Source: Acidobacteriota bacterium
Lineage (GTDB): Bacteria; Acidobacteriota; UBA6911; RPQK01; JAJDTT01
Direction: 5' to 3'
DNA: 64,000 bases
Assembly: GCA_963668095.1 (NCBI GenBank)
Contig: OY764083.1
Coordinates: forward strand, 738,322-802,321
Shown here: piece by piece, positions 42,193 through 64,000 of the stretch
How the letters are laid out: each line of letters starts with the position of its first letter
Numbering within the stretch: the first letter of the stretch is position 1
Made by a program: the position numbers and the translations under genes
The notes under the pieces: model-generated
What the model was told of the DNA's origin: nothing
The model's database searches: none
Seen by the model: only the letters and a program-made list of their open reading frames with translations

Positions 42193-42282
42193 GGTTGGAT
42201 CCTCCCGGCGCCCGATCCGAATCCGCTTGCGGCGTCCGACCGGCTCTGCCATTCTGCCAGAACATCGACGATCGCCGATGAA

Positions 42283-44301
42283 ATGTCCAGCAGAATGTCG
42301 ACATTCCTCCCAGCCCTCATGGCCTTTGCATCCCTTGGCTGCCAACCGGATCTCGCCTCTGACGCTCCTGTTTCCTCGCCCTATCTGATCTACGAAGAGA
42401 CCCCGCAAGGGGCCGAGATCGTCCTCGACCCCGAGCGCCGGCCCCGCCGGTTCCAGGAGTCCCCGATGCTGGCCCGCCTGGTGGCCCGGGGGAAGCTCCC
42501 ACCGGTGGAAGAACGGCTTCCGGAGAATCCGTTGGTCCTCCATCCCACCGAGTCCATCGGCCGGTACGGAGGGACCTTGAAATCCGGCATGATCGCCAAG
42601 GGTCTCAACGAAGAGATGAACCGGATCATGGGAATGGAGAAATTCCTCTTCTACGACGCAACCGGAACCCGGGTCGTCCCCAGCGTGGCCGAAGACTGGC
42701 GCCAGAGCGAGGATGGCCGCCGGCTCCGAATTCAACTGCGGCGAGGCATGCGCTGGTCCGACGGCCACCCCTTCACCGCGGAGGACGTGCGCTTCTATTG
42801 GGAAGATATCCACGCCCACCCGGACGTATTTCCCTACCCCGATCCGGACCTGACGGTCAACGGCAAAACGATGCAGTTCCAGGTCCTGGACCCACACACG
42901 GTGCTCTTCCGATTCGACGATCCCCATCACCGGCTCGTGGAGATCGTGGCCTCCGCCTTCAGCCGGTTCGCCGGAAGCGTCTTCGGAGAGTTCCTCTGGG
43001 GACCGTACGCACCGGCGCATTATCTCAAGCAGTTCCATCCGGGCTACGTGTCCCCGGAGGATCTCAATCTCAGAGTGGGGGAATCCCAGCAGGAAGACTG
43101 GGTCGGCCTGATGAAGCTCCGGAACAACTACGCTCTGAACCCCGAGCTGCCGGTCCTGATGCCCTGGAGGACCGTGCAGGCGCGGGACACGGCCGTATGG
43201 GTCCTGGAGCGGAACCCTTATTTCTGGGAGGTGGACACCGAGGGCAATCAACTCCCTTACATCGACCGCTGGATCCTGACCAAGGCCACGGACCGCGAAG
43301 TCGTCAACCTGCGGGCCATTGCCGGCGAATACGACTTCCAGTACCGGTATCTGGACCTCAAGAACCTGCCCGTCTTTCTGGAGCATGCCGGGGAGGAGAA
43401 CTACAACGTCTATCTCAACCCCTCCCTGTCGGGGATGCTCTTCGGCTGCTATTTCAATCTGGCATGGGAGGGAGACCCCGAGGTCTCCAGATTGATTCGC
43501 GATGCGAACTTCCGCCGCGCGCTCTCCCTGGGCCTCCGCCGGACTCAGTTCAGTGACGCCTTTTACTTCTCGTTGGCCAGACCCGGCGCGGCCGGACCGT
43601 TTCCGACACACCCGGAGCATCCAGGGGAGAGCTATCGGACCCGCTGGTCCACCTACGATCCGGACCAGGCCAATGCCCTGCTGGACGATCTCGGACTCCA
43701 CGAGCGGGACGACGAAGGATACCGGATGCGAAGCGACGGACGCGGCCGGCTTCGAATCCGGATTCCCGCTCCGTCCGACCGCATTGAGATCCCCAAGTTC
43801 CAGATGTTGGAACAACAAATCGAAGAGCTGGGAATCGCCGTCGACCTTCCCATCCTGGGACGAACCCTCTGGTGGGAGGAGATGCGGGCCAACCGCGCCC
43901 AGATCACCTGCTGGGCGAACCCGACCCAATCCGTCTGGGGCAGCCAGCCAATGTATGTCCTTCCCGTCAGCCGATTATCTCCCATCGGTCCCTTGTTCGG
44001 GCTCTGGTTTTCCAGTAACGGAAGACTGGGAAAGATGCCCACCGATCCGAAGATCCTCCGGGCCCTGGAACTCTATCGGCTCGGCCGAACCCGGACGGCT
44101 TCGGAAAGGGCCCGGATCGGCCGGGAGATCTGGTCGATCGCCATCCATGAGCAGTGGATGATGAGCACCGTGGGGCGGGCGCCCACTCTGGTGCGGATCT
44201 CCGACCGGCGGCTGGGCAACATCCCGGCAGGGCTCTGCACCCAGGACAATTGCCGCGCTCCTTCCACAGGTCGTTTGGAGACCCTGTATTGGAAGGAGTA
44301 G
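42283..44301 (+). CDS. ABC transporter substrate-binding protein, family 5 (oligopeptide/dipeptide/nickel type), lipoprotein
   Basis: Start ATG 42283 (MSSRMSTFLPALMAFASLGCQPD, lipobox LGC). About 670 aa. Family-5 SBP blocks (LVLHPTESIGRYGGTLK, WSDGHPFTAEDV). Confidence 0.8.
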   Translation: MSSRMSTFLPALMAFASLGCQPDLASDAPVSSPYLIYEETPQGAEIVLDPERRPRRFQESPMLARLVARGKLPPVEERLPENPLVLHPTESIGRYGGTLKSGMIAKGLNEEMNRIMGMEKFLFYDATGTRVVPSVAEDWRQSEDGRRLRIQLRRGMRWSDGHPFTAEDVRFYWEDIHAHPDVFPYPDPDLTVNGKTMQFQVLDPHTVLFRFDDPHHRLVEIVASAFSRFAGSVFGEFLWGPYAPAHYLKQFHPGYVSPEDLNLRVGESQQEDWVGLMKLRNNYALNPELPVLMPWRTVQARDTAVWVLERNPYFWEVDTEGNQLPYIDRWILTKATDREVVNLRAIAGEYDFQYRYLDLKNLPVFLEHAGEENYNVYLNPSLSGMLFGCYFNLAWEGDPEVSRLIRDANFRRALSLGLRRTQFSDAFYFSLARPGAAGPFPTHPEHPGESYRTRWSTYDPDQANALLDDLGLHERDDEGYRMRSDGRGRLRIRIPAPSDRIEIPKFQMLEQQIEELGIAVDLPILGRTLWWEEMRANRAQITCWANPTQSVWGSQPMYVLPVSRLSPIGPLFGLWFSSNGRLGKMPTDPKILRALELYRLGRTRTASERARIGREIWSIAIHEQWMMSTVGRAPTLVRISDRRLGNIPAGLCTQDNCRAPSTGRLETLYWKE

Positions 44302-44370
44302 ACTCTGCCGTGGGACAACACCGATCCTCTGCAGACCACCGTCCGGCGTGACGGCACGCGAAAACCGATC

Positions 44371-45363
44371 ATGGTTGCCTATCTGCGCCGCCGCCTGCTC
44401 CAAGCGACCCTGACGATCTGGGCCATCAGCATCGTTTCGTTCGTTCTCATCGAGCTGCCACCGGGGGACTTCGTCACCGCCTACGTGGACCGGCGCGCCT
44501 CCCAGGGCATTCCCCTGCCGGCGGAGGAGATCCAGATCCTGAGAGTCCGTTATGGCTTGGACCAACCCGCAGCCCAGCGCTATCTGATCTGGATGGGTCG
44601 GTTGCTCCGCGGTGACCTCGGCGTCTCCTGGATTCGCGGGCAGCCGGTTTCGGAGATCATCTCCGATCGCCTCTGGTTGACCATGGCCGTATCTCTGGCC
44701 GCCATTCTGCTCACCTGGGCGGTGGCTCTGCCGGTGGGTGTCTACTCGGCCATTCGCCAATATTCGGCGGGAGACTATCTGTTCACACTCCTCTGCTTCG
44801 CCGGTGTCGGCGTCCCCAACTTCCTGCTCGGCCTCCTCGTCATGTACCTGGGATTCGTCTGGTTCGATGCGGATGTCGGCGGGCTCCTCTCATCCCAGTA
44901 CGTGGACGCCCCCTGGAACGCCGCCAAGCTTTGGGACCTGATCAAGCATCTTCCCCTACCGGCCCTGGTGCTGGGCCTGGGCGGAACGGCCTACATGATT
45001 CGGATCCTCCGTGCCAATCTGCTGGATGAACTGTCCAAACCGTACGTTCTCACCGCCAGGGCCAAGGGGCTCTCGGAGATCCGGCTCCTTCTCAAGTACC
45101 CCCTGCGCGTGGCCCTGAACCCGTTCGTCAGCACCGCCGGCTATCTGCTTCCCTATCTGGTCTCGGGCAGCGTCATCGTCTCCATGGTCATGAGCCTTCC
45201 CACCGTGGCGCCAGTGTTATTGTCGGCCCTCATGGACCAGGATCTTTACCTGGCCGGCACCCTGGTGCTCCTGCTGGGCGTGCTTACCGTGGTGGGAACG
45301 CTGATTTCGGATCTGCTTCTGCTCTGGATCGATCCCAGGATCCGGTTCCGGGGACAGTCATGA
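44371..45363 (+). CDS. ABC transporter permease (DppB/OppB-type)
   Basis: 330 aa, 6 TM helices, binding-protein-dependent permease signature region. Its last about 8 codons lie in the tandem repeat at 45340-45363. Confidence 0.85.
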   Translation: MVAYLRRRLLQATLTIWAISIVSFVLIELPPGDFVTAYVDRRASQGIPLPAEEIQILRVRYGLDQPAAQRYLIWMGRLLRGDLGVSWIRGQPVSEIISDRLWLTMAVSLAAILLTWAVALPVGVYSAIRQYSAGDYLFTLLCFAGVGVPNFLLGLLVMYLGFVWFDADVGGLLSSQYVDAPWNAAKLWDLIKHLPLPALVLGLGGTAYMIRILRANLLDELSKPYVLTARAKGLSEIRLLLKYPLRVALNPFVSTAGYLLPYLVSGSVIVSMVMSLPTVAPVLLSALMDQDLYLAGTLVLLLGVLTVVGTLISDLLLLWIDPRIRFRGQS

Positions 45364-45455
45364 ATCCAGAGCCACGGTCTTGGGGACAGTCATGAATCCG
45401 CCGGTTTTGGGGTCAGTCACGTGAATCCGCCGGTTTTGGGGACAGTCACGAATCC
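45340..45455. repeat. four tandem about 30-bp units (gaatcc-N-ggttttGGGGACAGTCAyg) spanning the permease-1 stop and the permease-2 start
   Basis: Seen directly: ccggttccggggacagtcatga / atccagagccacggtcttggggacagtcatg / aatccgccggttttggggtcagtcacgtg / aatccgccggttttggggacagtcacg. Confidence 0.8.
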
Positions 45456-46560
45456 GGAGCCGGAGGAGATTGAATTCCAGTTCGAAACGGCGTCCTCCTG
45501 GCAACTGACCTGGAGGCGCTTCCGCCGGCACAAGCTGGCTCTCGTCTCCCTGATCCTCCTGGGATTCCTTTACCTGGTGGTTCTGCTGGCCGATTTACTT
45601 GCCACCGCCGACCCCACCCGAATCGATGCCAGCCGAGCCTACCTGCCTCCCCAACCCATCCACCTGCGGGACGACAGCGGATTCAATCCGCATGTCCACC
45701 CGGTCTCCGGGGATTGGGACCACCGCATTTTTCGACGAGTCCATCACATCGATCCGCGTCGGAGGCTCCCGGTCCGCCCGCTGGCCAGAGGCTACGAATA
45801 CGAGTTTCTGGGTCTGATTCCGACCGATCTGCACCTAATCGGGGTTGAGGGTGAGACCCAGGCCCTATCGCTGCTGGGTACGGACGGGCTGGGACGCGAC
45901 CTCTTCTCCCGCCTGATCCACGGCACCCGGACCTCGCTCACCATCGGTCTGGCGGGAGTCATCCTGAGCCTGGTTCTGGGCGTCGTGCTGGGCGGAATCT
46001 CCGGGTTCTACGGAGGCGCGGTCGACACCGTGATCCAGCGAGTCATCGAGATCCTTCTCTCCATTCCCACCATTCCCCTGTGGCTGGGCCTGGCCGCCGC
46101 CATGCCCCGGGACTGGGGAGTGCTCCGCGTCTATTTTATCCTCACGGTCATCCTGTCCCTCATCGGCTGGACCCGCCTGGGCCGGGAGGTCCGCGGCCGT
46201 TTCCTGGTGCTCAGGCAGGAGGACTACGTCCTGGCCGCCGAACTGATGGGCGCCAGCCGGGCCTCCGTCATCCGGCGCCACATGGTGCCCGCTATCACCA
46301 GTCACGTCATCGCCACCGCGACCCTCGCCCTGCCGGCGATGATCATCGCCGAAACCTCCCTCAGCTTTCTGGGACTCGGTCTGCGTCCGCCGGCCATCAG
46401 CTGGGGAATCCTGCTGCAAGGGGCCCAGCAGGTGCAGGTCCTGGCGCTGAGGCCCTGGTTGTTGGCTCCTGCAGTGCCGGTCATCGTGTCCATTCTGGCC
46501 TTCAATTTCGTGGGAGACGGCCTGCGTGACGCCGCGGACCCCTATGCCAGGAGAACTTGA
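45421..46560 (+). CDS. ABC transporter permease (DppC/OppC-type)
   Basis: 379 aa. The only in-frame start is GTG 45421, inside the 4th repeat unit. N-terminal WRRFRRHKLALVSLILLGFL typical of DppC. Permease signature ALAGEPRILIADEPTTALDV is not here; the EAA-like loop is present. Confidence 0.75.
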   Translation: MNPPVLGTVTNPEPEEIEFQFETASSWQLTWRRFRRHKLALVSLILLGFLYLVVLLADLLATADPTRIDASRAYLPPQPIHLRDDSGFNPHVHPVSGDWDHRIFRRVHHIDPRRRLPVRPLARGYEYEFLGLIPTDLHLIGVEGETQALSLLGTDGLGRDLFSRLIHGTRTSLTIGLAGVILSLVLGVVLGGISGFYGGAVDTVIQRVIEILLSIPTIPLWLGLAAAMPRDWGVLRVYFILTVILSLIGWTRLGREVRGRFLVLRQEDYVLAAELMGASRASVIRRHMVPAITSHVIATATLALPAMIIAETSLSFLGLGLRPPAISWGILLQGAQQVQVLALRPWLLAPAVPVIVSILAFNFVGDGLRDAADPYARRT

Positions 46561-46570
46561 AGCTCAACCC

Positions 46571-47692
46571 ATGGCTGAGAACTGGATCCTTTCGGTCAAC
46601 GACCTGAAGACCCATTTCTTCACTCGGGAGGGGGTCGTCCGGGCGGTGGACGGCGTCGGCTTCGACCTCGCCCCCGGACAGGTGCTGGGCATCGTCGGGG
46701 AGAGCGGCTGCGGCAAGAGCGTCACCGCCCTGTCCATCCTGGGTATCGTGGATCATCCGGGACGCATCGTCGAAGGCCGAATCCTGCTCCGCCCGGCGCA
46801 GGGGGGGCCTCCCGTGGATCTGGCTCGGCTGAACCCCAAGGGACGCCGGATCCGATCGATCCGAGGCGGGGAGATCGCCCTCATCTTCCAGGAGCCCATG
46901 ACCTCGCTGAGTCCGGTGCACACCATCGGCCAGCATGTTTCAGAAACCATTCGGCTGCATGGCGGCATGGGCCGGCGAGAGTCCCGGGAGCAGGCGGTAG
47001 AGGTTCTGCGCTCCGTGGGGGTCCCCGATCCCGAGCGAGGGGCGAAGCTCTACCCGTTTCAGCTCAGCGGCGGGCTTCGCCAGCGCGCCCTCATCGCCCA
47101 GGCCTTGGCCGGAGAACCCCGAATCCTCATCGCCGACGAACCGACGACGGCCCTGGACGTGACCACCCAGGCCCAGATTCTGGATCTGCTCCGGGATCTC
47201 CAGAAGCGGAGAGGGATGGCCATCATTCTCATTACCCACGACCTGGGCGTCATTGCGGAGATGGCCGACCAGGTCCTGGTGATGTACTTGGGTAGAGGCG
47301 TGGAGAGAGCGCCCGTCGATCGCATCTTCCACTCGCCCGAGCATCCCTACACCCGTGCCCTCCTGAACTCCATGCCCGGTCAGGGCGCCGCCGCGAAGCA
47401 GTCGCTTCCCAGTATCTCCGGCTCCGTGCCGCCCGCCTTCCGGCGGCCCTCCGGGTGCCCGTTCCATCCCCGTTGCCTGGAGTTCCTGGACGGAAGCTGC
47501 AACCGAATGGAACCGGAACCGGTCATGGTCCACCCGGACCACGAGGTGCTCTGCCTGCGCCGGGAGCCGGAAGAGCACGGTCATCCATCTTCGCTGGATG
47601 AACTGTCCGAAAACGGACAGTTTGTATCGAAACCGGACACTTTGTCCCGAAATCGGACACTTCAACCCCGAACCGAGAAGAATAGAGATTGA
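46571..47692 (+). CDS. ABC transporter ATP-binding protein (DppD/OppD-type)
   Basis: Start taken at ATG 46571 (MAENWILSVNDLKTHFFTREGVVRAV...). Earlier in-frame GTG 46526 / ATG 46544 would overlap the permease. Walker A GESGCGKS, signature LSGGLRQR, Walker B ILIADEPTTALD. The unusual about 30-aa C-terminal tail is encoded by 20-bp tandem repeats. Confidence 0.8.
   Translation: MAENWILSVNDLKTHFFTREGVVRAVDGVGFDLAPGQVLGIVGESGCGKSVTALSILGIVDHPGRIVEGRILLRPAQGGPPVDLARLNPKGRRIRSIRGGEIALIFQEPMTSLSPVHTIGQHVSETIRLHGGMGRRESREQAVEVLRSVGVPDPERGAKLYPFQLSGGLRQRALIAQALAGEPRILIADEPTTALDVTTQAQILDLLRDLQKRRGMAIILITHDLGVIAEMADQVLVMYLGRGVERAPVDRIFHSPEHPYTRALLNSMPGQGAAAKQSLPSISGSVPPAFRRPSGCPFHPRCLEFLDGSCNRMEPEPVMVHPDHEVLCLRREPEEHGHPSSLDELSENGQFVSKPDTLSRNRTLQPRTEKNRD
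47605..47670. repeat. three tandem 20-bp units (cgaaaNcggacaNtttgtNN) inside the 3' end of the first ABC ATPase gene
   Basis: Seen directly: ccgaaaacggacagtttgtat / cgaaaccggacactttgtcc / cgaaatcggacacttcaacc. They encode the low-complexity tail ELSENGQFVSKPDTLSRNRTLQ. Confidence 0.7.
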
Positions 47693-48714
47693 ATCCTGAG
47701 ATTCTTCTGGACGTCAGGAACCTGGCGAAACACTTCCCGGTCCGATCCGGCCCGTTCCAGCGGCCGGACGGCAAGGTCCAAGCCGTCACCGACGTCAGTT
47801 TTCACCTGAGCCAGGGAGAGTCCCTGTCACTCGTGGGGGAAAGCGGCTGCGGAAAGACCACGCTGGCGCGGACTCTTCTCCGGGGTTACGAGGCCACGGC
47901 CGGATCGGCTTGGTTCCGCACCGAAAAGGACGATGTCGTCGATTTGCTGAAACTCCCTCGCCGGCGGCTCAAACCATTGCGGCGGCAACTGCAGATGGTC
48001 TTCCAGGACCCCTACTCCTCCCTGAATCCCAGGATGACGGTTCAACAGATCATCGGCGAACCCTTGCGCATTCATGGCGAAGAGCTGGGCATCACCGCCC
48101 GGGAGGCACGCCGGGAACGTGTCCGTGAATTACTGTTGCAGGTGGGCCTCCGGCCCGAAGCGGCCCGGCGCTATCCCCATGCCTTCAGCGGCGGGGAGAG
48201 GCAGCGGATCGGAATAGCTCGAACTCTCGCCACCCGGCCCCGGCTGGTGATCGCGGACGAACCGGTTTCGGCACTGGACGTCTCCGTGCAGGCCCAGATC
48301 CTCAACTTGATGTTGGAACTGCAGAAGCGGTACCGGATCGGCACCCTGCTCCTGACTCACAACCTGATGGTGGTCCGCCAGGTCAGCGACCGGGTCGCCG
48401 TCATGTACCTGGGGAGGATCATGGAGACGGCCCCCACCGAGACCCTCTTCAAAAGTCCCTCACACCCGTATACGGCGGCTCTTCTCGACGCGGTCCCGCG
48501 GCCCGACCCCCGCGTCCGGAACCGTTCCAGAATCAAATTGAGCGGCGAAGTGCCCAGCCCGCGCGACCCGCCCCCTGGATGTCCCTTCCATCCCCGGTGC
48601 GCCCACGCCCAGGATCGATGCCGCAACGAGATGCCGGCCCTGGAGAAAGTCGCACCGGGTCACCGAGTCCGCTGCCATCTCTGGCGCGAACTGGACTTGA
48701 AAGGAATGGACTGA
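47689..48714 (+). CDS. ABC transporter ATP-binding protein (DppF/OppF-type)
   Basis: 341 aa. Apparent TTG start overlapping the previous stop (TTGA). Walker [10 protein letters not shown], signature FSGGERQR, Walker [14 protein letters not shown]-terminal oligopeptide-ABC C-domain with CPFHPRC. Confidence 0.8.
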
Positions 48715-52421: not shown

Positions 52422-53495
52422 ATGCATCGATTCACATCCGTAACTCCAAGTCGCCGGTTCTCATGGGCCCTGACCGTCGCCCTCCTGGCCGGCCTGTGGG
52501 GATGCGCCCCAGCCCCCCCACCCGTCGAGGAACCGGCACCGCAGTGGCCTGAATTGGCAGGTTACGAGGCCATGTCGATACCCGAAGGCAACCCCATGAC
52601 GGTCGCCAAGATCGAGTTGGGGAAACAGCTCTACTACGACCCCCGGCTCAGCGGAGACGGAGTCCGCTCCTGCTACGGCTGCCACCTGAAGGAAAATGGT
52701 TTGACCGACGGAAAGCCCGTGGCCATCGGGGCTTTCGACAAGACCCTGACCCGGTCCAGCCCGACGCTGTGGAACATCGGATACCACTCCGAGCTGTACT
52801 GGGACGGACGCACCAAAGGCCTGGAAGCCCAGGTGAAGGGTGCCTGGCGCGGTGGAAACATGGGCGCCTCGGGTAAGGACGGCGCCCCCAGCATGGACGA
52901 TGTCTGTGCCAAGCTGAATGAGATCCCCGGTTACAGCGAGCAATTCCAGGCAATCTTCGGCGGCGAAGCCAATCCGGACCGCGTCGCCATGGCCGTGGCG
53001 TCCTTCATGCGGACCATCGTCGCCGTGGGCTCTCCCTGGGTCCGTTTCCGGGAAGGCGACGAGTCCGCCTTGAGCGAAGCGGCCCGCCGCGGCTATACGA
53101 TTTTCAGCGAGAAGGCCAAGTGCACCAACTGCCATGACGGCCTGCTCCTGACCGACCTCCAATACCACAACGTGGGCATCGGAATGGACGCCGAATCTCC
53201 GGACATCGGCCGGGCCAAGGTCTCTGGAGACGAAAAGGACACGGGCGCCTTCAAGACACCCACGCTCTTGGACATCGCGGAATCGGCGCCCTATTTTCAC
53301 AATGGGAGCGCCACGACCCTGGAAGACGCGGTTCAGGTGATGCTCGACGGGGGAAAGCCCAACCAGTGGCTTGACGAGGAGAACCTTCGAGAGACCAAGG
53401 AAGCCGATCTGACCGAAGAGGAAGTGGCCGACCTCCTGGCCTTCCTGCGCGAGCTTGACGTCGACTACGACGTCAGCCCGCCGGAACTTCCTTGA
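52422..53495 (+). CDS. di-haem cytochrome c peroxidase (CCP/MauG family), lipoprotein
   Basis: 357 aa, ATG 52422 with GGGAGGAG RBS. Lipobox LLAGLWGCA. Two haem c sites CYGCH and CTNCH. Conserved CCP blocks (WDGR..., FKTPTLLDIA, PYFHNGSA). Confidence 0.8.
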   Translation: MHRFTSVTPSRRFSWALTVALLAGLWGCAPAPPPVEEPAPQWPELAGYEAMSIPEGNPMTVAKIELGKQLYYDPRLSGDGVRSCYGCHLKENGLTDGKPVAIGAFDKTLTRSSPTLWNIGYHSELYWDGRTKGLEAQVKGAWRGGNMGASGKDGAPSMDDVCAKLNEIPGYSEQFQAIFGGEANPDRVAMAVASFMRTIVAVGSPWVRFREGDESALSEAARRGYTIFSEKAKCTNCHDGLLLTDLQYHNVGIGMDAESPDIGRAKVSGDEKDTGAFKTPTLLDIAESAPYFHNGSATTLEDAVQVMLDGGKPNQWLDEENLRETKEADLTEEEVADLLAFLRELDVDYDVSPPELP

Positions 53496-54625: not shown

Positions 54626-56248
54626 TTGCTGGAGCGCACCTATCGCCGCCGCGTCCCGCCGCAGCAAGCCGTGACCCCGGAACTGGCGCGGCATCTGACA
54701 TCGGCATCGCACGACCTGGGCCGGGAGGTCGGTGTCCTGATCGGGCGCGACGGCATCGTCCGAAACGTGATCGTCGGCAACGCCACCGGTCTCATGCTGC
54801 CGGACATCGGCCGTCTCCGCGGCGGGACCGGGCGATTTCGCGGACTGCGGCTGCTGCACACGCGCCTCCGGGGTTCGGCCCTCAACCACGATGACCTGAA
54901 CGACCTGGTCCTGCTTCGCCTCGATCTGGTCGCCGTCATCGAGGTCTTGGAAGGGGGCTGGCCGGGAAGGCTGGAAGCCGCCTATCTCGATCCCGGATCC
55001 CTGGCCGGCAGCGGCAACGGCGACGCAGCGGCCGAACCCTTCCTGAGAATCCGATCCCGTTCCGTTCATGACCTGGACCTGGATTTCCAGGCCACGATCC
55101 AGGCGCTGGAGCGGGAGTTCGCCCGGCTGGCCCGAAGGACCCGGGGACCGAAAGGCGCCGAGCGGGTCATGGTCGTCGGCCTCCGCCCCGAGGACGCCCA
55201 TTTTGCCGAAACTCTGGAACTGGTCCGCTCCGCCGGCGCCACCATTGCCGGACGGATGCGCCAACGCCGGCCCAGAATCCATCCGCGCACTGTTCTGGGC
55301 AAGGGCAAGCTGGAGGAGCTGGTCTTGGAGAGCATGCGCTGCAACGCCACCGCGGCCATCTTCGACATCGATCTGAAACCGGCGCAGGCACGTGCGTTCG
55401 AAGACCGGACCGGACTCAAGGCGGTGGACCGGACCCAGCTGATCCTGGACATTTTCGCCCAACGAGCCCGCAGCGCCGACGGCAAACTCCAGGTCGAACT
55501 GGCTCAACTGAAGTACTCCTTGCCTCGTCTGACCGAGAAGGACGAGGGGTTGTCCCGTCTCACCGGCGGCATCGGGGGACGGGGACCGGGCGAAACGGTC
55601 ATGGAAATCGGCCGGCGCCGGATTCGAACGCGAATCCGCCGGCTGGAGAAGCGGGTCGAACACCTCTCGCGTCAGCGCGAGCTCCGGCGCAGGCGTCGGC
55701 GGCGCCGGGGGCTTCCGGTGCTTTCCATCATCGGCTACACCAACGCCGGCAAGAGCACCCTCCTCAACGCCCTGACCAACAGCGTCATAAAGGCCGAGGA
55801 CAAGCTCTTCATGACCCTCGACCCCACCAGCCGGCGCCTTCGTTTCCCCCGGGAGGGAGAGGTTCTCATCACCGACACGGTCGGATTTATCGCCGAGCTG
55901 CCTCCGGACCTGATCTCCGCCTTCCGGGCAACACTGGAAGAGCTTTCGGACGCCAACCTCCTGCTCCACGTCATCGATGCCGCCGACCCGGAGATGGACG
56001 ACAAGATCCGGGCGGTGGAGATGTTGCTGGTCGATCTGGATCTGAACCGGATCCCGTTGGTGAAGGTGCTGAACAAGATCGATCTGTTGCCCCCGCAACA
56101 GGTGAATGCCCTCTGCGGCCGGATCGGTGGACTGGCGGTGAGCGCGACTCGACGCGAGGGGCTGGCGGAACTGGTGAAAACCGCTGAGGACCGGCTGGAA
56201 AAACCTGAGGCTCCCGGGTTGAATCCGATCTCGGGAATGTCGATTTAA
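54626..56248 (+). CDS. hflX: GTPase HflX
   Basis: 540 aa; apparent TTG start. HflX N-terminal domain, then G-domain motifs G1 GYTNAGKST, G3 DTVGF, G4 NKID. Confidence 0.8.
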   Translation: MLERTYRRRVPPQQAVTPELARHLTSASHDLGREVGVLIGRDGIVRNVIVGNATGLMLPDIGRLRGGTGRFRGLRLLHTRLRGSALNHDDLNDLVLLRLDLVAVIEVLEGGWPGRLEAAYLDPGSLAGSGNGDAAAEPFLRIRSRSVHDLDLDFQATIQALEREFARLARRTRGPKGAERVMVVGLRPEDAHFAETLELVRSAGATIAGRMRQRRPRIHPRTVLGKGKLEELVLESMRCNATAAIFDIDLKPAQARAFEDRTGLKAVDRTQLILDIFAQRARSADGKLQVELAQLKYSLPRLTEKDEGLSRLTGGIGGRGPGETVMEIGRRRIRTRIRRLEKRVEHLSRQRELRRRRRRRRGLPVLSIIGYTNAGKSTLLNALTNSVIKAEDKLFMTLDPTSRRLRFPREGEVLITDTVGFIAELPPDLISAFRATLEELSDANLLLHVIDAADPEMDDKIRAVEMLLVDLDLNRIPLVKVLNKIDLLPPQQVNALCGRIGGLAVSATRREGLAELVKTAEDRLEKPEAPGLNPISGMSI

Positions 56249-56300: not shown

Positions 56301-57515
56301 TCACCGCAGCGGATTCTCGTACCAGACCACGTTCCGGCTGTGTCTGCCGGCCACGAGCAGGTCCAGATCCCCATCCCCATCCAGATCCACGGCGCGAATG
56401 TCGTAGGACTCCTGATCGCGATCCAGGACATGGACCCGGAACCGCCCCGAACCGTCGTTTTCGTACCAGGCGGCCATTCTGGAGCCAAAGGCGCAGGTCG
56501 CCGCATCCATATCGCCGTCCTGATCCAGATCGGCCACGGTCAGAGCGTGAGGTTCCCGGATCTCGGGATGGATGTCATGGACCTTCCAATGGGGCGCTTC
56601 GAACCAGATCACGCCGCGAGCATGCCCCCGGGAGGCCACGAAATCGACTTGGCCGTCTCCGTTGACGTCGGCCGGATGGATATTGGTGGCTCCGGGCTCG
56701 ACGCCTCCCAACCGGTGCCGCTTCCAGGCCGCTTCAGGATCTTTCGGAGCCTCCCACCAAGCGAACCAATTCCCCAGACCCGTCGTGTCGGAAGGACCTC
56801 CCTTGGCGGCCGAGGCCGCGTCGGGACGGCCGTCTCCGTTGACGTCTCCAAATCCCAGATAGTGACTGAGCCCCGGCGCATCCCGGTGGGCGAAGATGAA
56901 ACGATGCCAGGAATCGGCCTCCTTCGGTTTTTCCGGAACCCGGTACCAGGCCAGGGATTCGGGGAACGGCCCCAGGGGCTGGGCGCTGGTGGCCAATAGA
57001 TCCAAGCGCCCGTCCCGGTCCACGTCACCGGTCAACAGCCCATGAATGCCGTCCACCTGATCGTCGACCAGCCGCTCCTTCCAGATCTCGGTCTCGGGGT
57101 TTTCAGGATGCTCCAACCAGGTGATCAGTCCCGGCTTGTAGCGAGCTCCGATCCAGTCCAGGTCACCGTCGCCGTCCACGTCCATGACCTCGCTGTGGAT
57201 GAAGTCCCGTTCGTCCTCGGGCCCCAGAAGGATCTCCTTCCATTCGGGAGCCACCAGCAGGCGGGTTCGGCCGCCGCTGTTGGCGATGACGTCGGGCAGC
57301 CCGTCTCCCGTGAAGTCTCCGCCCACGGCGGTGAGGGCGGTGGCGCCGGAATAGACCTGGTGCTTGCGCCATGTCCCTTTTCCGGCGGCGGCCATAGCCG
57401 GATCCAGAGACAGGAAAAGAGCCATTGTCGCGGCCACCGCAGTTGGGAAACGGAAGCAACGGAGTCTCGACGTCGCCCTCGAAAAAGCATGGTCTCGTTG
57501 AATCGACTGCATCAT
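56301..57515 (-). CDS. FG-GAP / VCBS-repeat beta-propeller protein, secreted
   Basis: Start about 57515 (MMQSIQRD... with hydrophobic signal AVAATMALFLSL). Repeated DxDGDGxxD calcium-binding loops (DVDGDGDLD, DVNGDGRPD, DLDGDGDLD) characteristic of FG-GAP/ASPIC-UnbV-like repeats. Confidence 0.6.
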   Translation of the reverse strand: MMQSIQRDHAFSRATSRLRCFRFPTAVAATMALFLSLDPAMAAAGKGTWRKHQVYSGATALTAVGGDFTGDGLPDVIANSGGRTRLLVAPEWKEILLGPEDERDFIHSEVMDVDGDGDLDWIGARYKPGLITWLEHPENPETEIWKERLVDDQVDGIHGLLTGDVDRDGRLDLLATSAQPLGPFPESLAWYRVPEKPKEADSWHRFIFAHRDAPGLSHYLGFGDVNGDGRPDAASAAKGGPSDTTGLGNWFAWWEAPKDPEAAWKRHRLGGVEPGATNIHPADVNGDGQVDFVASRGHARGVIWFEAPHWKVHDIHPEIREPHALTVADLDQDGDMDAATCAFGSRMAAWYENDGSGRFRVHVLDRDQESYDIRAVDLDGDGDLDLLVAGRHSRNVVWYENPLR

Positions 57516-57677
57516 TCCTCCTGCGAAAACCGGAACCGCCGAACGCTTGGACTGAAAGGATTCTCCTGCCCCGTGAGCTAACGACATCTCCGGGCAGACG
57601 TGAGTCTATTCGGAGGCCGGAGAGGGTAGCAAGATCCTGACCCGAATCGCCGGGACCAGACGGTATACTCTCTGGCC

Positions 57678-59867
57678 ATGCGCTGGGGCATGGCCTGGGC
57701 TTTGATCCTGCTCTCACTGTGCCCCGCTCTAGGGGCCCTGGAGGGAAGACTTCTCTTCCCCGACGGAACCCCCGTGGCAGGGGCCCGGGTCACGATCCTG
57801 GAACATCCCGGTCAGAGCCGAACCGACCGGGAGGGGCGATTCATCTGGTCTCCCGATCCTTCCGTACCGTTTGAAGTTCGAGTCGAACTCCCAGGCGGAC
57901 ACGATACCTTGCACATCGTCGTGCGGGAAGCGGTCCCGGAAGGGCCCCTCGAGATGGTGGTCCGGCCGCTCTTCCGAGAGGCGCTGACGGTGACGGCCGG
58001 CAGCCCGACACGCACCGGGACCACGCCGGCCAGCGCCCTGGACCTGGTGACTCGGGAGGAGTTGGCTCAGAGCCGGCCCGCCCGGCTGATCGAAGCGGTC
58101 GAAGGAATCCCGGGCGTGGGCCGGATCTCGGCGGGTCACGCCAGCGTGCCCTCCATTCGGGGCCTGGCGCGGGGCCGGACGTTGATTCTCCTGGACGGCG
58201 CCAGGGTCATCTCGGAAAGAAGAGCCGGACCCAGCGCGTCGTACCTGGACCCCTTCTTCCTGGACCGGGTGGAAGTGGTTCGGGGGCCCGGTTCCGTCGC
58301 CTACGGGTCCGACGCCTTCGGCGGCGTCATTCACGCCCTGACCCGGAGACCGGACCCGGAATCGGGTTACGGAGCTCGATTCACGGGCAGTCTCGGTTAC
58401 GGCATGCCCGAGCAGAGCGCGGGTCTGGAGGTGAGCCGAAGTCTGGAATCGGGGTCCGTCTTCTTTCTGGGAAGCCTCAGAAACTTCGGCGACTATCGGA
58501 GCTCCGGAGTCACCGTGGACAATTCGGCCGCCCGCAATCGCTCGTTCCTGGCGGGCACCCAACTCCAACTCGCAGGAGGAGAACTCTCCTTCGGATGGCA
58601 GACGGACCGGGGCCACGATCTGGGCCGGCCCACCTTGCGCTCGCCCCACATTCGAACCTTCTACCCGGAAGAAGATTCCGACCGCATGAACGTCGCCTTC
58701 GAGTCGAAGTCCATCGGCAGGTTCGAACAGATCCGGGTTGAAGGGTCGATGGGCCGATATGCCCTGATCACGGACAGGGAGCACCTCCCTTCACCGAGCC
58801 AGGACCGCCAATTGCAACGGTCTCGAGTCTCCGCCCGCCATTTCGATTTCCGCGTGCACGCCACCTCCCCCCTGAAATGGACCCGGCTGGAGATGGGACT
58901 CGACGTCAATGGCCGCTTCGGTCTCCATTCCGAGAATACGACCCGCAGCTTCGATGCCGGGAATCGCCCCACCTCCATCCATGCCGCCGCTTCCATCGAG
59001 GACGCCAGCCGCATCAACCTGGCTCCCTTTCTTTCCGCGGAGGTGATGGTCAATTCCTTTCTGTCCCTTTGGGCAGGCGGACGCTGGGATCAGGTCTCCA
59101 GCGCCAGCCGCGGGTCTCTGGGAGAATTCAACAGGATCGGGCGGGCGCTCTCCGGCTATCTTGCGATCGTCACGCGTCCCCTGCCCCCGCTCCAACTCAC
59201 GGCTCAGCTCTCCCGGGGCTTCCGGGAACCCACCCTGTCGGACCGCTATTTCCAGGGAGTCAGCGGCCGCGGCCTGGTTCACGGAAACCCCAACCTGGCT
59301 CCCGAAACCAGCCGGCAGTGGGACGTTTCGGCCCGGTGGTCCGGAAACGACTGGCGCTGGGACCTGTTCCTGTACCGGTACGAGATCCGCCAATTGGTGG
59401 AGCGCTTTGAAGCCGAACCTCGACGTTTCTTCTTCCGCAACCGCGGATCGGCCGTCTTGAGTGGAGTGGAGTTGGAGCTGCACCGCCATATCGGAGAAGG
59501 ACTGTCCGTGGGACTGGGAGGTCACGTTGCCAGGGGCCGGACCCAAGAAGACGGGAATCCGCTGGACGACGTCTCCGCCCCCGCGCTCACGGTGATCGTC
59601 GGCAAGACTCTGGGTGCGCGGAGCCACCTCTGGCTCCATGGGCGTTCCTTTGCCCGGGACTCCAGGGCCGGTCCCACGGAGGCGCCCACTCCGGGCTTCG
59701 GCGCGTTGGATCTTTCCTGGAGTTGGCTGTTGGATTCACGGACCCAGCTCCGGTTCCTGGTCAGGAACCTCACCGACAAGGACTACCCGGCCAGTCCCGA
59801 CCGCTGGTCCGTACCGGCCCCGGGCCGAAGTCTTCTTCTCAGTCTCATGTACAATCTAAGTAATTAA
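57678..59867 (+). CDS. TonB-dependent outer-membrane receptor with N-terminal carboxypeptidase-regulatory-like domain
   Basis: 729 aa, ATG 57678. Signal peptide. LLFPDGTPVAGARVTIL (CarbopepD_reg-like). Plug domain with DRVEVVRGPGSVAYGSDAFGGVIHA. C-terminal barrel ending in an aromatic-terminal-type sequence (LMYNLSN). Confidence 0.8.
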   Translation: MRWGMAWALILLSLCPALGALEGRLLFPDGTPVAGARVTILEHPGQSRTDREGRFIWSPDPSVPFEVRVELPGGHDTLHIVVREAVPEGPLEMVVRPLFREALTVTAGSPTRTGTTPASALDLVTREELAQSRPARLIEAVEGIPGVGRISAGHASVPSIRGLARGRTLILLDGARVISERRAGPSASYLDPFFLDRVEVVRGPGSVAYGSDAFGGVIHALTRRPDPESGYGARFTGSLGYGMPEQSAGLEVSRSLESGSVFFLGSLRNFGDYRSSGVTVDNSAARNRSFLAGTQLQLAGGELSFGWQTDRGHDLGRPTLRSPHIRTFYPEEDSDRMNVAFESKSIGRFEQIRVEGSMGRYALITDREHLPSPSQDRQLQRSRVSARHFDFRVHATSPLKWTRLEMGLDVNGRFGLHSENTTRSFDAGNRPTSIHAAASIEDASRINLAPFLSAEVMVNSFLSLWAGGRWDQVSSASRGSLGEFNRIGRALSGYLAIVTRPLPPLQLTAQLSRGFREPTLSDRYFQGVSGRGLVHGNPNLAPETSRQWDVSARWSGNDWRWDLFLYRYEIRQLVERFEAEPRRFFFRNRGSAVLSGVELELHRHIGEGLSVGLGGHVARGRTQEDGNPLDDVSAPALTVIVGKTLGARSHLWLHGRSFARDSRAGPTEAPTPGFGALDLSWSWLLDSRTQLRFLVRNLTDKDYPASPDRWSVPAPGRSLLLSLMYNLSN

Positions 59868-59887
59868 TTCATAAATACATATAAATA

Positions 59888-60847
59888 TTGGAAATGGGAG
59901 GGTCCACGATGGCTGTCGACTCCATGCACTTGAGGGAAATGACGTCCCCGGACCGGTCGGAAGTGGCCGAGCTCATCTACGCCTCCATCAACGCCTGGTA
60001 CGGACTCCGAGGCCTGGGCCAGCCCTTTCAGGGATCACCCAAGGTCACGGAGATCTTCCATGAGGTCTACTCGGCGACGGGTTCCAGCCGTTGTGTCATA
60101 GCGGAGAATGCCCGCACCGGGCGTCTCATGGGCTCCTGCTTCTACCATCCCCGAAAGACCCATGTGGGACTGGGCATCATGACCGTCCATCCCAACTACT
60201 TCGGTTTCGGCGCCGGGAGCAGGCTCCTGGAGTACATCTGCCGCTTTACCGACGAGAACGGGTACCAGGCCCTGCGCCTGACCCAGAGCGCCCTCAACCT
60301 GGACTCCTTCTCGCTCTACAACCGGTACGGCTTCGTCCCCCGTCAGGCCTACCAGGACATGATCCTCCAGGTGCCCGAGGCGGGCCTGGATCACGGGGTG
60401 CCCGGACTCGACCGGGTCCGGGACGCCACTTTGGACGACGTCCCGGCCCTGGCGGCTCTGGAGATGGAGGTGAGCGGCGTGAGCCGCGAGGAGGATTATC
60501 GGCTCTGCATCAATAACGAACTGGGATTCTGGACAGTCTCGGTCTACGAGGGATCCGGCGGAAACATCGAAGGGTTTCTGGCTTCGTCGTCTCACCCCGC
60601 CTTCAACATGCTTGGTCCGGGCGTGATTCGAACGGAACCACAAGCGGCGGCCCTGATCCACACGGAACTGGACCGGCACCGCGGACGTACGCCGGTCTTC
60701 CTGGTGCCGGTGGACCGCTACGGCCTCGTCCGGCAGATGTACGACTGGGGCGCCCGCAATTGCGAACTCCACTTCTGCCAGGTCAGGGGCCGATACCAGC
60801 CCTACCAAGGCATCAACATGCCGACGTTTCTCCTGGAAACCGCCTGA
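59888..60847 (+). CDS. GNAT-family N-acetyltransferase (tandem GNAT-like halves)
   Basis: 319 aa (several possible start Ms at 59888-59909). Acetyl-CoA motif-A-like GLGIMTVHPNYFGFGAGSRLLEYI. Preceded by an unusually AT-rich spacer (taattaattcataaatacatataaatattgg). Confidence 0.6.
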   Translation: MEMGGSTMAVDSMHLREMTSPDRSEVAELIYASINAWYGLRGLGQPFQGSPKVTEIFHEVYSATGSSRCVIAENARTGRLMGSCFYHPRKTHVGLGIMTVHPNYFGFGAGSRLLEYICRFTDENGYQALRLTQSALNLDSFSLYNRYGFVPRQAYQDMILQVPEAGLDHGVPGLDRVRDATLDDVPALAALEMEVSGVSREEDYRLCINNELGFWTVSVYEGSGGNIEGFLASSSHPAFNMLGPGVIRTEPQAAALIHTELDRHRGRTPVFLVPVDRYGLVRQMYDWGARNCELHFCQVRGRYQPYQGINMPTFLLETA

Positions 60848-61042: not shown

Positions 61043-61744
61043 ATGGAAGGCAAACTGACCGTCGTCATTCCCGTCTACAACGAACGCGGCATGGTGGAGG
61101 AGGTGCTGCAGCGGGTCGCCGAGGCGCCTCTGAGAAAAGAGGTCATCGTCGTGGACGACGGTTCCGATGACGGGTCCCGCGAGATCCTGGAACGCCTCTC
61201 GGAACATGCCACCCTTCCGGATGGACTCCTTATCCTCTTCCACGAACGGAATCGGGGCAAGGGAGCCGCGGTTCGGACCGGGATCGCTCAAGCCACCGGA
61301 GACTGGATCCTGATTCAAGACGCCGATCTGGAATATGATCCCCGTGACTATCCTCAGCTTCTGGCCCCGCTCCTGGACGGCCGCGCCGACGTGGTCTACG
61401 GCAGCCGCTTCCTGGGTGGCGCCGGTCAGACCCGCTATTTCCATCACTATCTGGCGAATCGATTCCTGACGTTCGTGACCAACCTGTTGACCAACTTGAA
61501 GCTGACGGACATGGAAACCGGCTACAAGGTCTTCCGCCGGCAGGTCTTGGACGGCATCCGGCTCCGGTCGAACGGCTTCGAGTTCGAACCCGAGATCACG
61601 GCCAAATTGGCTCGCAACGGTTACCGAATCTACGAGGTTCCTATCTCATACAACAGCCGCTCCTACCGGGAAGGGAAGAAAATCACCTGGGTCGATGGAC
61701 TCAAGGCGTTGTGGGCCCTGTTTCGCTACCGGTTCTTCTCGTAA
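61043..61744 (+). CDS. family 2 glycosyltransferase (polyprenyl-phosphate sugar transferase / DPM1-like)
   Basis: 233 aa. LTVVIPVYNE, VVDDGSDDGS and QDADLEYDP (DxD) motifs. Confidence 0.8.
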   Translation: MEGKLTVVIPVYNERGMVEEVLQRVAEAPLRKEVIVVDDGSDDGSREILERLSEHATLPDGLLILFHERNRGKGAAVRTGIAQATGDWILIQDADLEYDPRDYPQLLAPLLDGRADVVYGSRFLGGAGQTRYFHHYLANRFLTFVTNLLTNLKLTDMETGYKVFRRQVLDGIRLRSNGFEFEPEITAKLARNGYRIYEVPISYNSRSYREGKKITWVDGLKALWALFRYRFFS

Positions 61745-61858: not shown

Positions 61859-64000
61859 CTACTTGCGGCGTGTCCAGGTTTCGAAATTCCAGAGCTCCGA
61901 GTCCCAGGCGTTCATCCAGACGCCCTCGATGTCGTTGGAGTGGGCCGAAATGTTCCCGCGGTGAATCAATGGGATGAGGGAATAGCTTTGGACGAGCAGG
62001 TCGTTCAACTCGACGGTGAGTTCGTCACGCCGGTCCTTACCGACCGTCCTTTGGAGTTCGGCATAGAGCCGATCGTATTCGTCCGATTGGAAGCGCGGGA
62101 CGTTCGAACTACGGAAGGAGTTTGACGCTCCGACGATCTGGGACGTGACCCACGACCCCAGATAGCCCTCCGGGTCGGGGGCACCCGCCCCGTTGGCGAA
62201 CATCTGGACGTCGGCATAGAACCGGCCCAAAGTATCCGGGTCGTCCGGATCGCCGCCGAAGTACACCGATGGATTGATGTCCTTCAACTCGGTTTCGACA
62301 CCGATTTCGGCCCACCAGCCCTTGATGTGTTCCTGCGTCGCCTGCCTGACCGAGTTCGTTGAGGTCTGATACAGGATCTTTAGCGGCACCCCATTGCGTT
62401 CCCGCACGCCGTCACCGTCCGAATCCACGATCCCCGCGTCGTCGAGAATCTGGTTGGCGAGATCGATGTTCTGGACCAGGCATTCGTCGTTCCTGGTCGA
62501 GGTCTGGGCCGGCGAACCGATCCAGACATTGCACGTCAACCGGCCGGCCTCGCCATAGCCGACCCTGACCAAGGTGTCGCGGTCGATGGCAAGGGAGAGG
62601 GCCCGGCCCACCACCGGATCGGTCAGGAACGGGTGGGGGTTCGTCCCGTCCGCGTACTCCGAACGAACTTCTCCAAGGCTGGGGTCCGGGTTCGTCTGGT
62701 TGAGCATGAGACGCTCGACCAACGTGGCGAAGGCCGTGACGACGGTTCCAGAGCCGCCTTCGGCCAGGGAATCGAGGACATCGGGCTCGACTTGGAGATT
62801 CCAGGCGTAGTCGGCTTCGTTCAACTCCAGAACGGATCCGGCCGCCGCGGCTGCGGTGCCTCCCCCTTGCAGCATGACCTCGCCGAAATGGGGGACGCCG
62901 TAGTCGACGCCGCGGTAGAGCGGATTGAACTCATAGCGGATGGAACCGGTGGTGCCGAAATCGGCAACAACGTAGGGGCCCGTGCCGATGGGCCGTTGGT
63001 TTGCCTCCGTACAACCGCTCGTCGCAGCGCCAAGGCAATCCGCGAACTGAGAAGCCTGAAGGATCGGACTGAATGCGGACACGAACGGTTCATATGGGAA
63101 CGACGTCGGCGCGTCGAACGTGATGGCGACGGTCCGGTCGTCGACGGCGTCCACGGAGGACACGTTGGCAAATTTTTTGGTCTGGAAGCAGCCGGCATTC
63201 GGCGCAGTGCAATATTGCCATGTGAACACAACGTCGCCCGATGTGAGTGGCGTGCCGTCGGACCAGACGGCATCGTTGCGAAGCGTCCAGGTGATCCGGC
63301 TTCGGTCAGGGGAGATGCCTCCGTTGGCGAGCGTCGGAATCCGGGTCGCCAGAACCGGGACCAATTCGCCGTCGGGGTTGTACTCGGCCAGTGGCTCGAT
63401 GACCAGCGATGCCGCCTCGGCATCCTTGTTGCCCGTCGAAAGATACGGATTGAGGATGGACGGGGCCTGCCAATACCGAAGCGTCGCCGTCCCGCCCTGG
63501 CCGGCGACATCCGCGAAATAGCCGGCGCCGATGAGGATCGGCTGTCCATGGGAGACCACCCGCTTGACGAATATCACCTTCCGACGCTTCGTCTGCGTGG
63601 CGGGATTGAGAGACTTGTAGTAGAGGAACGTCTCGCCGAAAGCCTGCGCCACGCTCAGGTCGTCCCGGTCGCTGAGCGACGTCAACTCGGAATCGGCGTA
63701 GGACCACTGTTCAAATGACGGGTCCCCGCTGAAAAGCGTCTTGCCGTGCCGGTCCACGCCGAACACGTAGATCGACTTGTGCGTCCACCGCGGGTCGGCG
63801 GACAGCGAAATGGCGGCAAAGTACCCGTTCGCTTCCAACTCCAGCGCGGCGCAGCGGACGAATGTCTGCAGCCTATCGGCGGAAGGATCGGAGCCAAGCT
63901 CCATGGCGTTGACTTCTTCCGGACTGCAGGTCACCGGGAGGTCCGCACGGTAGATCCCCGCGCCGATGGCGGATGGTGTCCCATCCCAATCGATCCCCTT
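61859..64000 (-). CDS. sCache_2-domain + family-5 solute-binding-protein (SBP_bac_5) fusion protein; N-terminus beyond window end
   Basis: The minus-strand ORF is open through position 64000 (no stop upstream of track start 63934, which is GTG). An sCache_2-like segment (NGYFAAISLSADPRWTHKSIYVFGVDRHGKTLFSGDPSF ... GETFLYYKSLNPATQTKRRKVIFVKRVVSHGQPILIGAGYF) is followed by a complete SBP family-5 body (LRYWQAPSILNPYL..., WSDGTPLTSGDVVFTW...). Confidence 0.65.
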   Translation of the reverse strand, partial: KGIDWDGTPSAIGAGIYRADLPVTCSPEEVNAMELGSDPSADRLQTFVRCAALELEANGYFAAISLSADPRWTHKSIYVFGVDRHGKTLFSGDPSFEQWSYADSELTSLSDRDDLSVAQAFGETFLYYKSLNPATQTKRRKVIFVKRVVSHGQPILIGAGYFADVAGQGGTATLRYWQAPSILNPYLSTGNKDAEAASLVIEPLAEYNPDGELVPVLATRIPTLANGGISPDRSRITWTLRNDAVWSDGTPLTSGDVVFTWQYCTAPNAGCFQTKKFANVSSVDAVDDRTVAITFDAPTSFPYEPFVSAFSPILQASQFADCLGAATSGCTEANQRPIGTGPYVVADFGTTGSIRYEFNPLYRGVDYGVPHFGEVMLQGGGTAAAAAGSVLELNEADYAWNLQVEPDVLDSLAEGGSGTVVTAFATLVERLMLNQTNPDPSLGEVRSEYADGTNPHPFLTDPVVGRALSLAIDRDTLVRVGYGEAGRLTCNVWIGSPAQTSTRNDECLVQNIDLANQILDDAGIVDSDGDGVRERNGVPLKILYQTSTNSVRQATQEHIKGWWAEIGVETELKDINPSVYFGGDPDDPDTLGRFYADVQMFANGAGAPDPEGYLGSWVTSQIVGASNSFRSSNVPRFQSDEYDRLYAELQRTVGKDRRDELTVELNDLLVQSYSLIPLIHRGNISAHSNDIEGVWMNAWDSELWNFETWTRRK

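Follow-up and report, generated by a model that had tools for sequence, protein, structure and literature searches.

The gene that runs across one edge of the window, i.e., the whole 64,000-nucleotide stretch of DNA analysed in this study, codes for a Sec-exported, soluble, periplasmic protein of Acidobacteriota, which is composed, in this order, of a signal peptide, two tandem sCache_2-type modules with a conserved cysteine pair each, a flexible linker, and the full body of a family-5 solute-binding protein (SBP), and which is no receptor. A single fusion event underlies the family, and strong constraint has preserved the fusion since; its gene is always an orphan, far from permease and ATPase genes. 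The Cache pair itself is a promiscuous, portable cassette that occurs alone or ahead of unrelated periplasmic domains.

The fusion gene and its full-length product

The last 713 codons and the stop codon of an 869-codon gene occupy positions 61859..64000 on the minus strand of the window, with the stop codon at 61859-61861. Translation of the minus strand from 64000 gave a single open frame of 713 codons that is still open at the window edge, and the remaining two frames of the same segment contain stops throughout. Upstream of the SBP body, the frame carries the motifs ...ANGYF...IYVFGVDRHGKTLF...KRRKVIFVKRVVSHGQPILIGAGYF..., so those quoted in the earlier note are indeed present in the minus-strand translation. 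The 691-aa ORF with a GTG start that appears in the ORF list reflects that listing's choice of the first start codon inside the window. A database search retrieved the full-length protein, P0001, from a 5.5-Mb contig; it consists of 869 aa, is 100% identical to the window protein, and extends it by 156 N-terminal residues, namely the signal peptide and the first Cache module, whose codons lie beyond 64000. The ORF therefore continues past the window edge, as had been supposed, and the stop codon or frameshift just beyond 64000 that might have divided it into two genes does not exist.

All of the parts inside the window are encoded by the minus strand. The last 22 residues of Cache module 1 (KGIDWDGTPSAIGAGIYRADLP; residues 157-178 of the full-length protein), which were delimited by the alignment of modules 1 and 2 together with the sequence of P0001, correspond to 63935..64000, and module 2, of the sCache_2 type (residues 181-318, from Cys181 to GAGYF), corresponds to 63515..63928. 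The conserved cysteine pair of module 2 is encoded at 63926-63928 (C181) and 63851-63853 (C206). A short Gly-rich linker, ADVAGQGGTAT, placed by alignment, follows at 63482..63514, and 61862..63481 encodes the 540-aa family-5 SBP body, which is complete, of the Dpp/Opp/Nik type (cluster C), and furnished with three conserved close cysteine pairs.

The same architecture was found in at least 95 of the best 120 matches to the window protein, which fall into size classes of ~835-935 aa with two Cache modules and ~1150-1215 aa with four. Some cassette-only proteins of ~300 aa, e.g., P0235, resemble truncated or frameshifted fusions, which might raise the suspicion that two genes have been united by an artefact of assembly or gene calling, but the ORF is continuous in the window and the fusion ORF recurs uninterrupted in 95 or more protein clusters, which stem from many independent MAGs, complete chromosomes included, and both the Cache and the SBP parts are strongly conserved among the relatives. 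Such recurrence refutes an artefact, for which we see practically no room. In a neighbour-joining tree, the 37 fused SBP5 bodies were monophyletic, with an unfused Acidobacteriota sequence as their sister, which points to a single fusion event. The MAGs in which the related loci lie are Acidobacteriota with the labels Versatilivoraceae, Bryobacterales, or Terriglobia, and at least two of the related MAGs are sponge-derived; the names APA_bin and SB0661_bin belong to sets of symbionts from the sponges Aplysina aerophoba and Ircinia ramosa (PMC11706023; PMC7883664). In the few annotations where source names are present, the proteins are called "ABC transporter substrate-binding protein," "cache domain-containing protein," or "hypothetical."

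Export and membrane topology

As read from their sequences, the N-termini of P0001 and its family members open with a short charged stretch, which is followed by a hydrophobic core and then by a site of small residues (VAA/EN in P0001, where the signal peptide reads MMSRTIPPLFLYFILLITGPGFVAA/EN; family consensus AAPA), and a lipobox is absent from all of them. A hydropathy scan of P0001 detected one hydrophobic segment only, at residues 6-24, and nothing of transmembrane character beyond it. Among the further N-terminal domains that the earlier note had thought possible, another Cache module is thus found in P0001, but transmembrane helices are not, the only hydrophobic stretch being that of the signal peptide. 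The 10 cysteines of P0001 form five close pairs (30/52, 181/206, 420/427, 478/486, and 646/663), and all ten positions are invariant or nearly so in 58 relatives, which fits an oxidising extracytoplasmic location.

These features bear directly on the proposal that the ORF belongs to a transmembrane signalling protein and supplies its extracytoplasmic part, with the Cache and SBP folds as sensors. The proposal is an understandable one, given that the ORF runs off the window and that sCache_2 domains are otherwise known almost only from chemoreceptors, histidine kinases, and cyclases (PMC4822843). From the signal peptide to the stop codon at 61859, however, the chain of 869 aa contains neither a second hydrophobic segment nor an output domain: a Pfam scan of full-length P0001 detected no HAMP, kinase, MCP, or GGDEF domain, and none of these outputs was found by Pfam scans in any of 48 other cassette proteins, taken from the longer matches described below. 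In addition, the window genes downstream of the fusion gene, which encode GT2, GNAT, and TonB-dependent receptor proteins as judged by orthology with the related locus L002, are convergent with it, and any continuation of the protein would require read-through of the stop codon into a convergent gene. The 114-bp convergent intergenic region holds neither a terminator-like nor a promoter-like site. The signalling proposal is, therefore, refuted unless the gene model of P0001 is wrong, and we regard it as extremely improbable.

Two complete sCache_2 modules in tandem

When the window fragment was scanned alone, Pfam gave only a sub-threshold match to dCache_2 (13.2 bits, E=0.049). Full-length P0001 passed the cut-offs of both sCache_2 (PF17200; 33.7 bits vs a cut-off of 25, from module 1) and dCache_2 (PF08269; 28.9 bits vs 26.5), and its four-module relative P0030 scored 77 bits against sCache_2 over 4 matched stretches. 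The assignment to dCache_2 was rejected because only half of the 298-position profile was matched, and each module covered only about one-third of it; such partial matches per module indicate that the arrangement is two complete sCache_2 units in tandem and not a dCache domain. A joint profile was then built from 26 single modules, i.e., modules 1 and 2 of each of 13 relatives with the window module first, and the solved structures that it matched were sCache_2 chemoreceptor domains only (4K08, E=1.7e-7; 5G4Y, 1.8e-5; 2QHK; 4EXO; and 3UB6). The modules show the sCache_2 fold, in which long helices at the N-terminus precede a PAS-like alpha/beta core. In the 13 relatives, modules 1 and 2 align over their full length with 25-33% identity, and Cys1, Cys26, Trp48, Tyr54, Pro109, Lys117, Lys122, Gly128, and Gly136 are invariant across both module types.

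In the full-length AF2 model, the SBP5 body has a pLDDT below 50, too low for contacts between the domains to be read from it, and a Foldseek search with this model accordingly returned Cache and PAS matches only. Residues 321-358 also have a pLDDT below 50. The predicted Cache pair reached a pTM of 0.55, with an uncertain orientation of one module to the other. In other family members, the linker can be as long as ~45 residues, with many Gly, Pro, Asp, and Ser. The central claim of the earlier note, a Cache-type segment ahead of a complete family-5 SBP in one ORF, is borne out by the 713-codon frame, the Pfam scans, and the 26-module profile, and none of the profile searches placed the N-terminal segment within the SBP fold itself.

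The SBP body belongs to a transporter family

The Pfam SBP_bac_5 match (62138-63364, minus strand) scores 180 bits vs a cut-off of 32.4 (E=8e-53) and extends over profile positions 2-364 of 368, and the NCBIfam profile Opp4A aligns over positions 32-546 of 556; such near-full coverage of both profiles indicates that the SBP is complete. The cut-offs of the NCBIfam equivalogs Opp4A, NikA, GsiB, DppA, OppA, and CntA were all missed, the best score being that of Opp4A with 100 bits vs 650, and NikA reaching 67 vs 393, and with scores so far below the cut-offs a named ligand class is not transferable to the SBP5 body. Identities of 50-62% link it to unfused or otherwise-fused SBP5 proteins of dpp-like operons; the unfused orthologs from Chloroflexota and Alphaproteobacteria are 50-56% identical, and relatives from Acidimicrobiia, which carry an N-terminal OpuAC, SBP_bac_3, or second SBP5 domain in place of the Cache pair, are 61-63% identical. 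The two Acidimicrobiia relatives examined are encoded directly upstream of DppB/C genes in canonical operons. The SBP5 body is, accordingly, a member of a true transporter family. The suggestion of a dual-ligand binding protein, with two kinds of binding site, also stands as a viable reading.

An orphan gene without a nearby transport partner

Genomic context was drawn from 79 loci related to P0001. None of the 38 fusion loci has a DppB/C-type permease gene within 10 kb; ABC-ATPase matches occur at only four of them, and these are weak and distant (28-38% identity). At the loci of unfused orthologs, by contrast, DppB- and DppC-type permeases come directly after the SBP gene in ~36 of 41 cases, often with ATPases upstream. 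A search with the permease of locus L038 as the query gave no cognate permease on the contigs of fusion genomes among the best 120 matches. All-against-all clustering of the ORFs from the 38 loci and the window revealed no neighbour gene common to the fusion loci, only local synteny shared by at most nine of them, and no signalling gene is conserved near the 38 loci. Adjacent transporter or signalling genes, which had been named as something to look for, are thus not a feature of the fusion loci. Co-encoded permeases are usual for the SBP5 family but not obligatory, as the orphans MppA and HbpA exemplify; a published table assigns no transporter genes to mppA and hbpA (PMC8050422).

Within the window there is a single Dpp-type operon, a complete one, 13 kb away at 42112-48714. 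It has its own unrelated lipoprotein SBP, which is only 33% identical over 86 residues, and its permeases share no more than 32-34% identity with the permeases of the orthologous systems. These comparisons lend no support to a partnership between the fusion protein and this operon.

A portable Cache cassette

With the window module as the query, an exhaustive search of 1.84 billion representative proteins yielded 174 proteins at E<=1e-3, which range from short fragments up to 1158 aa. The search with the module profile retrieved mainly proteins of ~300 aa that consist of a signal peptide and the Cache pair, and some of these stand-alone cassette proteins share genomes with the fusions. Pfam scans of 48 of the longer proteins disclosed a wide variety of cargo behind the cassette: cytochrome P460, Cu/Zn superoxide dismutase (SOD), FGE-sulfatase in one or three copies, fn3, LRR, cupin, DUF192, SBP_bac_5, and regions without a Pfam match. 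The non-SBP fusions recur on many independent contigs, and several loci contain arrays of cassette paralogs. At one locus, L080, a Reprolysin gene abutting a stand-alone cassette was considered as a broken fusion and rejected, because the Reprolysin has its own signal peptide. The presence of the cassette on SOD, P460, FGE-sulfatase, LRR, cupin, and DUF192 proteins, as well as alone, means that its pairing with SBP5 is not special. The fusion is real, but the Cache pair is not specific to SBPs, which weakens special explanations of the Cache-SBP combination.

One such explanation starts from the fact that family-5 SBPs are known to dock on the Cache sensor domains of receptors. The fusion might then be an in-cis version of that in-trans partnership, in the manner of a Rosetta stone, in which the Cache pair would sense or stabilise one conformation, open or closed, of the SBP attached to it, or the whole protein might serve as a soluble co-receptor or decoy for a separately encoded membrane receptor. 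This seems quite improbable to us in view of the identical cassette that precedes the six unrelated domains just listed or stands alone, the flexible linker of variable length, and the lack of both a conserved signalling gene near the 38 loci and an output domain in the family.

A putative ligand pocket, retained but reshaped

The carboxylate ligand of PscD lies sandwiched between Trp92 and Trp145 and is held by hydrogen bonds to Tyr90, His103, Tyr143, and Lys156 (PMC5062169). We transferred these pocket residues to the cassette modules through the 26-module profile alignments. Tyr90, Tyr143, and Lys156 correspond to Y234 (63767-63769, minus strand), Y284 (63617-63619), and K297 (63578-63580) in module 2, all of which are conserved, and to Y81, Y139, and K152 in module 1. 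His103 is replaced by Phe in module 2 and by Phe or Leu in module 1, Trp92 by Phe in module 2 and by Val or Phe in module 1, and the position of Trp145 is variable in both. In 47 diverse cassettes with identities down to 33%, the six Tyr/Tyr/Lys positions of the two modules are invariant or at least 90% conserved, a class that about one-quarter of the positions in this alignment reach. The carboxylate-pocket residues mark a ligand subclass and not membership of the sCache_2 family. The retention of Tyr, Tyr, and Lys together with the replacement of the His and the two Trp suggests a pocket that has been retained but reshaped, and each Cache module is predicted to bind a small ligand, probably one with a carboxylate, because the Tyr/Tyr/Lys part of a known carboxylate site is kept.

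An alternative is that the Cache pair has lost its ligand binding and serves as a structural carrier at the N-terminus, e.g., as a scaffold for oligomerisation, folding, stability, or periplasmic retention, while the SBP5 part sequesters or buffers its solute without any role in transport. The conservation of the pocket Tyr, Tyr, and Lys in both modules down to 33% identity would be hard to explain for such a scaffold, and the 61-63% identity of the SBP5 body to operon-encoded transporter SBPs also argues against it. The promiscuous cargo and flexible linkers, the loss of the canonical pocket His and both Trp, the conserved cysteine pair in each module, which fits a stability role, and the absence of a permease gene near all 38 fusion loci nevertheless speak for it, and we consider the scaffold rather unlikely without dismissing it.

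Discussion

The explanation that we tentatively prefer, although it could easily prove wrong, is that of an exported orphan Cache-SBP5 protein in which the SBP is linked to transport and the ligand-binding Cache pair has a generic role. By analogy with the orphans MppA and HbpA, for which the use of a shared Dpp/Opp translocator has been demonstrated, the SBP5 body would still capture its solute and might deliver it to a Dpp/Opp-type importer encoded elsewhere in the genome. The Cache modules, judging from their conserved pocket residues, would each bind a small, probably carboxylate-bearing ligand. The role of the cassette is most likely a generic one, such as tethering, concentrating, or ligand-dependent tuning of the periplasmic domain attached to it, because the cargo domains are very different and the linkers are floppy; a joint specific binding site composed of the Cache pair and the SBP is less likely.

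Comparison with known systems helps to place this protein. The sCache_2 domains of the receptors Adeh_3718 (4K08), PscD (5G4Y/5G4Z), the Vibrio parahaemolyticus MCP (2QHK/4EXO), and TlpB (3UB6) are homologous to the cassette modules. Unlike in those receptors, two complete modules stand here in tandem in a soluble protein, each with a conserved N-terminal cysteine pair, and neither flanking transmembrane helices nor a signalling output is present; with respect to the C2/C3-carboxylate pocket of the receptors, His103 and Trp92/Trp145 are replaced. Like Escherichia coli MppA and Haemophilus HbpA, the fusion protein has a complete exported SBP_bac_5 body and no permease or ATPase genes nearby, but it has extra N-terminal domains that those two lack, and the sharing of a translocator is, in its case, suggested by analogy. 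The same two domain families, both extracytoplasmic, also meet in the pairs AibA (SBP_bac_5)-TlpB (sCache_2) and CBP (SBP_bac_5)-ChiS (dCache-like). The partners in those pairs are, however, separate proteins with the Cache domain on a membrane receptor, whereas in the fusion they are covalently joined, soluble, and devoid of an output, and the cassette pairs with unrelated domains as well. The SBP5-SBP5, SBP_bac_3-SBP5, and OpuAC-SBP5 proteins of Acidimicrobiia resemble the fusion in combining the same SBP5 subfamily with an extra N-terminal ligand-binding domain on one chain, but their extra domains are SBP folds and their genes lie in DppB/C operons, in contrast to the Cache modules and the orphan gene described here. 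Tandem substrate-binding domains are also found in GlnPQ-type importers. As for Cache domains outside receptors, the alpha2-delta subunits of voltage-gated calcium channels and the SMP_2 family belong to another, dCache_1-like subfamily and are eukaryotic and membrane-associated, while the present cassette is bacterial and portable and is mounted on enzymes and SBPs.

Cache domains are regarded as the chief sensor modules that prokaryotic signal transduction exposes outside the cell, and when their architectures were surveyed, SMP_2 was the only family in which no signalling outputs were found (PMC4822843). A compact sCache_2-type clade that is used only outside signalling stands apart from this picture. 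In the literature searched, we found no Cache-SBP fusion, no cassette of this kind, and nothing on non-signalling Cache proteins or on Cache domains in sponges or Acidobacteria; this use of a Cache domain is, therefore, one without a description in that literature. It is possible, though doubtful at present, that the two sCache_2 modules together form a portable periplasmic unit that does not signal and constitutes a new functional class of Cache. Its binding of small ligands would serve to tether, gather, or tune diverse exported proteins of Acidobacteriota, sponge symbionts among them, instead of driving a signal across the membrane; these proteins include an SBP, Cu/Zn SOD, cytochrome P460, FGE-type enzymes, and LRR and fn3 proteins. 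The orphan status of the fusion genes also calls for caution when a transport system is inferred from the name "ABC transporter substrate-binding protein." If the pair is such a portable module, the Cache-SBP5 protein would be more than a plain component of a transporter, namely a binding protein conditioned by a ligand. Moreover, if the cassette does bind a metabolite, it would show bacteria putting sensor modules to a second use, the direct conditioning of periplasmic proteins, and it would point to a molecule that is important to these Acidobacteria.

Genomic context of the fusion gene

Three genes near the Cache-SBP5 fusion gene are convergent with it: those for a GT2 glycosyltransferase (61043-61744), a GNAT protein (59888-60847), and a TonB-dependent receptor (57678-59867). 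They are syntenic between the window and L002, the ortholog locus of the window fusion (88% identical). Farther from the fusion gene lie the genes for an FG-GAP/dockerin-repeat protein (56301-57587, minus strand), an HflX-type GTPase (54626-56248), and a di-haem cytochrome c peroxidase (52422-53495). At L002 (6739-9834), two DDE transposase genes are inserted immediately upstream of the fusion gene.

The window also contains a complete Dpp/Opp-type ABC importer operon on the plus strand (42112-48714), which is composed of an SBP5 ORF (42112-44301), two permease genes (44371-45363 and 45421-46560), and two ATPase genes (46526-47692 and 47689-48714). The true start of this SBP5 is probably the Met preceding the lipoprotein signal "STFLPALMAFASLGC", rather than the ORF start at 42112, and the relationship of this protein to the SBP5 joined to the Cache pair is no more than remote. 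No permease genes were found within 10 kb at three loci of unfused orthologs (L042, L067, and L069), and therefore orphan status is not confined to the Cache-fused form.

Arrangements of the cassette and domain architectures of the SBP5 subfamily

Tandem arrays or additional copies of the Cache-pair cassette adjoin the Cache-SBP5 gene at L031 (8641-12176), L032 (7481-13543), and L037 (1055-2515), a pattern suggesting that the cassette has been duplicated and recombined locally. Stand-alone cassette genes at L081 and L082 are surrounded by IS and integrase genes. At another locus, L080 (8001-13588), a gene for a Reprolysin-type metalloprotease with its own signal peptide starts 2 nt past the end of the stand-alone Cache-pair gene and is followed by that of an NHL/fn3/TIG repeat protein of 1179 aa. 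The order of domains is reversed in one family member (P0287, 595 aa), where a signal peptide and two fn3 domains precede a C-terminal Cache pair; thus, N-terminal placement of the cassette is not obligatory.

In Acidimicrobiia (L083, 7001-9403; L084, 7001-10321; proteins P0113 and P0120), members of the same SBP5 subfamily carry different N-terminal binding domains in a single chain, with the architectures OpuAC-SBP5, SBP_bac_3-SBP5, and tandem SBP5-SBP5 (1106 aa). Both Acidimicrobiia loci checked, L083 and L084, have the canonical operon structure, including DppB/C; L084 additionally has genes for ATPases and for an M20 peptidase upstream. The SBP5 subfamily of the fusion seems prone to the acquisition of extra binding domains.
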